64,000 nt of DNA, taken from contig NC_083279.1 in assembly GCF_963506605.1 (NCBI RefSeq), forward strand, positions 100,812,001-100,876,000. Direction: 5' to 3'. Below, piece after piece: positions 51,898-52,927 of the stretch. A program made the translations under genes and the position numbers. Every line of letters begins with the position of its first letter. Position 1 is the first letter of the stretch. Below the pieces are notes generated by a model, which did not search any database, was not told where the DNA came from, and saw only the letters and a program-made list of their open reading frames with translations. This stretch comes from Zootoca vivipara (lineage: Eukaryota).

Positions 51898-51935
51898 GTA
51901 TCTGAAGAAGTGTGCATGCACACGAAAGCTCATAC
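51898..51935 (+). ncRNA. Minimal type-I hammerhead ribozyme (Penelope-like element derived)
   Basis: Stem I GTAT/ATAC; core CTGAAGA; stem II GTGTG-CATG-CACAC; GAAA; palindromic AGCT stem III; predicted cleavage after C51931. Confidence 0.75.
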
Positions 51936-52927
51936 CAAAATAAAAACTTAGTTGGTCTTTAAGGTGCTACTGAAGGAATTTTTTTATTTTAGAAGGAAGG
52001 AAGAAAAGGTGGGAGAGAAAGGCCAGGAATAAAGAGAGGGGTCCCAGCCCATAGTCTGGCTGCTGCATTGCAAACCAGTTTCCCAGTCGTCTCCAAGGGC
52101 AGCTCCACACGGAGGCCACTGCAGCAATCCCCTCGCATCCAGAGCATGGCATCCCACGACCACATCCTCTCCGGAAATGGGCACTGCTACTCACTGAGCC
52201 TCCAGGGACCTTGGCAATAATAATAATAGTAATAATAATAATAATAATAATAATTTATTATTTGTACCTTGCCCATCTGTCTGGGTTTCCCCAGCCACTC
52301 TGGGCGGTTTCTAACAAAAATTTAAAATCTGGCTGTGTGTGTGTGTGTTAAGCTATCTAATAGAATAATAATAATTAATAGCCCTCCTAAATTTAAAGAG
52401 AGCTGTCTTTGGCCTCAGGCGGTTGGCCAGATACATACCTGGCCCTCAGAGCAAAGAAAAAGGGACCCCACCCCAGGAGTCTGTATGGGGAATGGCAGAG
52501 AGTCCAAGTGCTAGAAAATGAGTCAGAAGCAGGGGAGTGGGGGGGGGAAGCAACTCCTGAGGACCCCCAGGTGAGGACCCCCACTAGAGCCAAGCATCCC
52601 TTTTTCACAAGATACAAATGACTCCCTTGTCAGTCAGTTCTGACTTTATGCATTGACTGGAAGGCAGGAGAAACCAGGCTGGTTCATTTCCCAGAAATCC
52701 CTTCAGTTGCTTCCACATTTTGCGTTGTAATCGTCCAGCCCTGGTTCCTAGGAAGACTTATCCATGATTGCGCAGGGATCCTGTTGCTTCTTCTGACCTA
52801 CAAATTCTGTAACAGAACAATGTATTTGCTTTGTAGGATTTGCTAGAGCTTCTCATTAAGACAGACAGAACTTGGCAGAAGAGCAAAGGGTTCCTTCTGA
52901 TCTCTTAGAGGCTTCCTGAGAGCAGAG

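Follow-up and report, generated by a model that had tools for sequence, protein, structure and literature searches.

The hammerhead motif in the first intron of ZNF-B, a SCAN-KRAB-ZNF gene of Zootoca vivipara, is very probably the 3′ terminus of a young retrotransposon of Neptune type that carries its own ribozyme, inserted into intron 1 of a single ZNF paralog and likely a neutral passenger there. The identity of the sequence to the pLTRs of intact elements, its very high copy number, its presence at one paralog and the splicing of transcripts across the intron in this gene family are all observed. Its landing in ZNF-B is most likely due to chance, not the mark of a control switch. Neutral insertion, which the preliminary description of this DNA had set as its null hypothesis, fits all the tests run; the undescribed regulatory system of ZNF genes that it put forward is not supported, given the thousands of identical motifs, the restriction to one paralog, and the lack of sense bias, enrichment or better preservation in 108 sampled ZNF genes. 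Coordinates refer to the window, the whole 64,000-nucleotide stretch that was analyzed, and the main features are collected in Table 1.

Table 1. Features of the hammerhead insertion and its host gene, in window coordinates.
Feature	Position	Strand	Evidence
Non-coding exon 1 of ZNF-B	51524–51659 (start approximate)	+	RNA depth; joints to 52836 in 3/3 RNA runs
173 N, with the exon-1 donor and the element 5′ junction inside or at the edge	51660–51832	.	Inferred position
Visible part of the 5′-truncated Neptune-type element (pLTR end, tail-less)	51833–51990	+	pLTR identity
Minimal type-I hammerhead	51898–51935	+	Sequence; 13,219 exact copies; min-HHR features as described in PMC4209133
Stem II and loop; perfect 14-nt palindrome	51910–51923	+	Pair probability; duplex energy
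Palindromic AGCT replacing stem III (dimer pairing site)	51927–51930	+	Sequence; dimer model as described in PMC4209133
SCAN exon of ZNF-B	52836–53329	+	Pfam SCAN, E=1e-35; AG acceptor, GT donor; RNA joints
KRAB exon of ZNF-B	54273–54399	+	Pfam KRAB, E=6e-20; RNA joint 54155 to 54272
C2H2 zinc-finger exon of ZNF-B, 7 fingers	55417–56261	+	Pfam zf-C2H2, 7 stretches; acceptor

All core boxes of the minimal hammerhead ribozymes (min-HHRs) of metazoan Penelope-like elements (PLEs), CUGANGA, GAAA and UH, are present in type-I order, both by inspection of the sequence and with the hammerhead descriptor. The CTGAAGA box occupies 51902–51908 and GAAA 51924–51927. Stem I pairs 51898–51901 with 51932–51935, and the five base pairs of stem II (51910–51914 with 51919–51923, closing a 4-nt loop) include the G10.1–C11.1 pair (G51910–C51923). 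One extra unpaired A, at 51909, lies between positions 9 and 10.1, the AGCT palindrome stands as the remnant of stem III, and the predicted cut point follows C51931 (C17), at 51931/51932. The core, the 4-bp stem I, the 5-bp stem II and the palindrome had all been read correctly from the sequence. Of the hammerhead searches, the descriptor matched, and Rfam, applied to 50500–53500 up to E=10, returned 17 matches with no hammerhead family among them.

A loose version of the core pattern matched three times in the window against 1.09 expected by chance. Exact pattern search of the 1.44-Gb genome finds 17,230 copies of the 34-nt core (8,570 forward and 8,660 reverse) and not one of its reversed control; the motif is therefore not a chance match. 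With the full stem I included, the 38-nt motif has 13,219 exact copies, about one per 109 kb, spread evenly over both strands. Identity over 125 nt is found at 14 places genome-wide, the window's own among them.

These copies belong to a family with intact members. Over its 158 nt, the stretch from 51833 to 51990 shows 97.5% identity to each of the two pLTRs in the full-length copies L071, L072, L074 and L075. The extent of 51898–51990 first given for the insertion was therefore too short at its start: element sequence reaches back to at least 51833, where the N stretch borders it, and the 5′ junction lies at or inside that stretch. The window copy and the right pLTR of L071 stop at one and the same T-run, which defines the former as tail-less and 5′-truncated. 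In the four full-length copies, two hammerheads approximately 3,030 nt apart flank a single open frame of 925–929 codons, and the same 34-mer is found in both pLTRs of L071, L074 and L075. RVT_1 and, at the C-terminal end, a GIY-YIG domain score above the Pfam cut-offs in these frames, and the translation shows a C-X4-C-X2-C linker between the reverse transcriptase (RT) and the endonuclease (EN) and a CxxC between GIY and YIG. Of the 150 endonuclease matches listed, 10 fall within open frames longer than 900 codons.

The shorter copies vary mainly in their upstream reach. Among the first 30, the downstream sequence is common and the upstream length variable, and the longest of the copies examined extend into the frame with the GIY-YIG domain. 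Neighboring copies are variably 5′-truncated, and the ends of most fall into two ranges, about +85 to +105 and +122 to +139 from the core. Two such end points are the signature of an optional tail, according to the accounts available in PMC11167929 and PMC8557442, and the copies here agree with an optional tail of 30–40 nt. Inverted partner copies are frequent in the family, with 32 pairs comprising 64 of 112 copies.

As far as the Neptune clade is described in the portions of Craig et al. 2021 (PMC8557442) at hand, it shares with this family the single open reading frame, the RT, the CX2-5CxxC linker, the C-terminal GIY-YIG, the two cysteines between the GIY-YIG halves, the pLTRs, 5′ truncation, inverted 5′ copies and an optional tail. 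The same source gives the linker motif as a mark of Neptune or Nematis that is absent in Penelope/Poseidon; Poseidon is without the linker zinc finger, unlike the family here. Vertebrates carry both Neptune and Poseidon, as outlined in a 2026 preprint. The element thus appears to be of Neptune type, a clade assigned by domain layout. The proposal of a minimal hammerhead of Penelope type, its stem III a palindrome, is correct: the motif lies in the pLTR and has the min-HHR features.

Further copies of the family were observed in and near the window. An older inverted pair lies at 41277–41440 and 42146–42219, its plus-strand copy apparently interrupted by a second retroelement of approximately 700 nt, where the two parts overlap by about 11 nt, and an inverted pair of short copies without the first box of the hammerhead lies at 25160–25280. 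A 2.2-kb 5′-truncated copy with an intact hammerhead (L088:2858-5079, G000:C4:100694858-100697079) immediately precedes exon 1 of a different ZNF paralog and is oriented in the sense direction. Elsewhere in the genome, four head-to-tail units of 598 nt, each with an endonuclease end, a pLTR and a hammerhead, form a retrozyme-like array (L031:4200-6750, G000:C1:2777825-2779652), a single transcript of which could give rise to dimers.

The host gene is as first described, since Pfam finds a SCAN domain, a KRAB domain and C2H2 fingers, seven in number, all on the plus strand. Three RNA runs were used, from an organism whose DNA contigs differ little from the window. All three contain spliced reads (5, 2 and 11) that connect position 52836 with an exon whose end lies near 51659. 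These reads bear a plus transcript's strand sign, and each may come from any of 14 SCAN-exon paralogs, 92–97% alike, in the surrounding 404 kb. The exon 1 region is 95% identical to ZNF-C 59379–59587, and by this homology the exon-1 donor is placed just inside the N stretch. Together, the splice joints and their strand sign place the hammerhead within intron 1 and in sense orientation, as had been claimed. Just upstream of exon 1, a different element of approximately 215 nt (51094–51306), 91% self-complementary as one long hairpin and very deeply covered by the reads of one DNA run, is likely a MITE; the Rfam microRNA matches at this place fell far under their gathering scores. Between ZNF-A and ZNF-B, at 7405–47943, are olfactory-receptor-like frames, named from their translations, some intact and some broken.

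At this site the insertion is found in ZNF-B alone among the paralogs with an alignable flank. Its absence from the ZNF-C intron, noted earlier, holds for every one of these paralogs (13/13), all of which have host sequence there. The paralog spacer measures 323–410 nt in 12 of the 13 and 123 nt in one, compared with at most 176 nt left for host sequence in ZNF-B. Provided that the number of N gives the real length, intron 1 of ZNF-B seems to have lost some 150 nt or more in the stretch 51660–51993. Among the contigs listed from two DNA runs, which break at repeats, none bridged the 3′ junction, and no RNA read crossed it in two runs read at about 6%.

The anatomy of the motif closely follows that of known retroelement ribozymes. 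The min-HHRs of metazoan PLEs, as characterized in the accessible text of Cervera and de la Pena 2014 (PMC4209133), are likewise of type I with a short stem I, an unpaired nucleotide between 9 and 10.1, the G10.1–C11.1 pair and a palindromic remnant of stem III; they also lie in pLTRs and occur genome-wide mostly as single motifs in truncated copies. That text records them in turtle and snakes. The motif here differs from them in two respects: stem II has 5 bp and is a perfect palindrome, whereas that of the Schistosoma min-HHR is given as 7–8 bp, and the number of identical copies exceeds the 4,000–9,000 motifs given for coelacanth and Xenopus. A search for literature on intronic Penelope hammerheads in lizards yielded only PMC11167929, on Poseidon PAc of Anolis carolinensis. 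PAc is also a lizard Penelope-like element with a pLTR hammerhead whose copies end at two points that define a tail, by the part of that report available. Its open reading frame is said there to start at stem II, whereas the frame here opens approximately 60 nt downstream of the core start, with the first ATG of the full-length frame farther downstream still.

Functional data on these relatives suggest that the isolated motif would cut poorly. A Schistosoma min-HHR has no activity as a monomer and low activity as a dimer in the excerpted results of PMC4209133. The PAc hammerhead is described in PMC11167929 as cutting only once the element protein is added and as dispensable for insertion in vitro, and that account, as far as available, places no RNA-seq ends at its site. 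By analogy, and with the anole results coming from a Poseidon element instead of a Neptune, the earlier expectation that cutting needs a partner or a helper appears to be right. Structure prediction points in the same direction. The hammerhead region folds no more stably than shuffled sequences (z −0.15 to −0.74), which leaves a stable monomer unsupported, and in the intron context stem II has a pair probability of 0.93–0.94 and stem I of 0.005–0.015. The active-type dimer is predicted at −11.1 kcal/mol versus about −6 kcal/mol per monomer, and a competing intermolecular stem-II duplex at −28.0 kcal/mol. According to this model, two RNAs could pair via the stem II palindrome more strongly than via stem III, and such pairing may either block cutting or favor multimers. 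The palindrome at 51910–51923 is the commonest form of stem II and loop in the family.

A mechanism in keeping with these observations would run as follows. Reverse transcription would begin just downstream of the hammerhead and would usually stop early, and for this reason most short copies would carry the hammerhead. Two start sites, as reported for anole Poseidon, where reverse transcription begins at two sites downstream of the ribozyme in the available description (PMC11167929), would explain why copies end at two points. The short copies would be intact because they are young and not because the host has kept them. In the ZNF-B pre-mRNA, the single motif would fold stem II and not stem I; as a solo copy, it would have no tandem partner in view and no element RNA downstream of the insertion end. 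With stem I unfolded and neither a partner nor downstream RNA, cutting is predicted to be rare and the motif to be removed with the spliced intron. If the N stretch held an inverted partner, that copy would lie antisense to the motif and mask it instead of completing a dimer. Cuts within introns often leave splicing unblocked.

Host use of the motif was addressed by a survey of ZNF genes. We analyzed 1.8 Mb of ZNF clusters, taking spans from the SCAN or KRAB exon to the finger exon, extending them 1.7 kb upstream of SCAN exons and scoring copies with the hammerhead descriptor. Forty extra SCAN-centered stretches were added, 31 of them with a complete SCAN-to-ZNF span and the rest counted outside. 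The survey covered 108 ZNF genes and 748 kb in a genome with several hundred ZNF genes (645 SCAN candidates). The 40 copies in the 108 genes divide equally between the orientations, 20 sense to 20 antisense. Of the intact ones, 9 are sense and 6 are antisense (p=0.61; 8:6 once the window copy is left out), small counts from a fraction of the ZNF genes that are also compatible with a modest sense bias. A bias had been hinted at by the home cluster and the first 77 genes, where intact copies were 6 sense and 2 antisense (p=0.29); it vanished with the 31 further genes (3 sense, 4 antisense). Exact sense copies in ZNF genes number 6 versus 3.4 expected genome-wide (p=0.13; 0.26 without the window copy), and 9 of the 108 genes have an intact sense copy, the number expected from chance insertion.

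Copies are in fact sparser within ZNF genes, at 53 per Mb inside versus 99 outside (p=0.0009), the outside class including distal first introns and 3′ UTRs. The deficit persists in the first batch after removal of domain exons (p=0.002). For intact copies, the densities are 20 per Mb inside and 35 outside (p=0.07), and the intact fraction is 15/40 inside versus 37/104 outside (p=0.85). Sense copies are depleted to the same degree as antisense ones, and intact copies to the same degree as broken ones, and hence the depletion is not specific to the ribozyme. The preliminary description had counted it as a refutation if intact copies were neither more frequent nor better conserved in ZNF introns than elsewhere, and this sample of 108 genes gives that result.

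Self-cleaving motifs are known in the sense strand of host introns, and the intronic hammerheads of amniotes are conserved single loci. The HDV-like CPEB3 ribozyme, in the descriptions available, is likewise self-cleaving and in the sense strand of its intron. These are conserved single loci, whereas the motif here has many thousands of young identical copies and is found in one paralog. A ribozyme domesticated by the host would be in low copy number, shared by paralogs and better kept than its relatives; the 13,219 copies, the 0 of 13 paralogs and the equal intact fraction do not agree with any of these.

Among the alternatives to a neutral passenger, the best survivor is incidental activity, which we nevertheless consider improbable: the copy would be cut in trans at a low rate, helped by Neptune RNA paired through AGCT or by Neptune protein and free of host selection, a side effect common to thousands of intronic sense copies. 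The core, the extra nucleotide, the G10.1–C11.1 pair and the palindrome are all intact, the family has intact frames, and trans cleavage is known for Schistosoma SINE hammerheads, as described in the consulted part of PMC6765202. The motif is also read from both strands in the RNA runs, with a depth of hundreds to thousands when all copies are pooled. Across 51848–51955, antisense and sense reads from all copies stand at 4:1, 2.3:1 and 1:1 in the three runs; a nearby repeat varies as much in strand ratio, and the ratios of the motif probably reflect a few highly expressed hosts. The lower density of copies within ZNF genes than beside them would also suit such activity, but it is shared equally by antisense and broken copies. 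The active-type dimer is far weaker in prediction than the competing stem-II duplex, and the window copy lacks the downstream RNA without which the anole protein gave no extension in vitro, by the available text of PMC11167929. No pile-up of read starts or ends was seen at 51931/51932 among the places listed in three fragmented RNA runs, which at 6% depth are a weak detector of cut ends. The first interpretation, a host-kept cut site sensitive to transposon RNA that tunes a transposon-repressor gene, is scarcely credible despite an intact sense motif in intron 1 of a KRAB-ZNF gene and intact sense copies in eight other sampled ZNF genes, since the insertion is not common to paralogs, the genes with such copies are no more numerous than chance predicts, antisense intact copies are about as common, nothing connects ZNF-B to Neptune, and the sign would be awkward, with more transposon RNA removing the repressor.

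With the motif read as the end of a neutral Neptune-type insertion, the window copy itself matters little, since retroelement ribozymes of this kind are known and this one has many thousands of copies. The family as a whole is of modest use and suited to the question of dimer-driven versus protein-helped cutting because it is young and abundant and offers intact frames together with tandem, inverted and solo copies. It is very unlikely that the intact sense Neptune hammerheads in host introns, thousands in number, can be cut in trans when the element is expressed. If they can, a transposon burst would cause nicks in host pre-mRNAs across the genome, and about 1 in 12 of the sampled KRAB/SCAN ZNF genes would be among those affected; such cutting of host introns, if real, would be a new route from transposon activity to host gene output.
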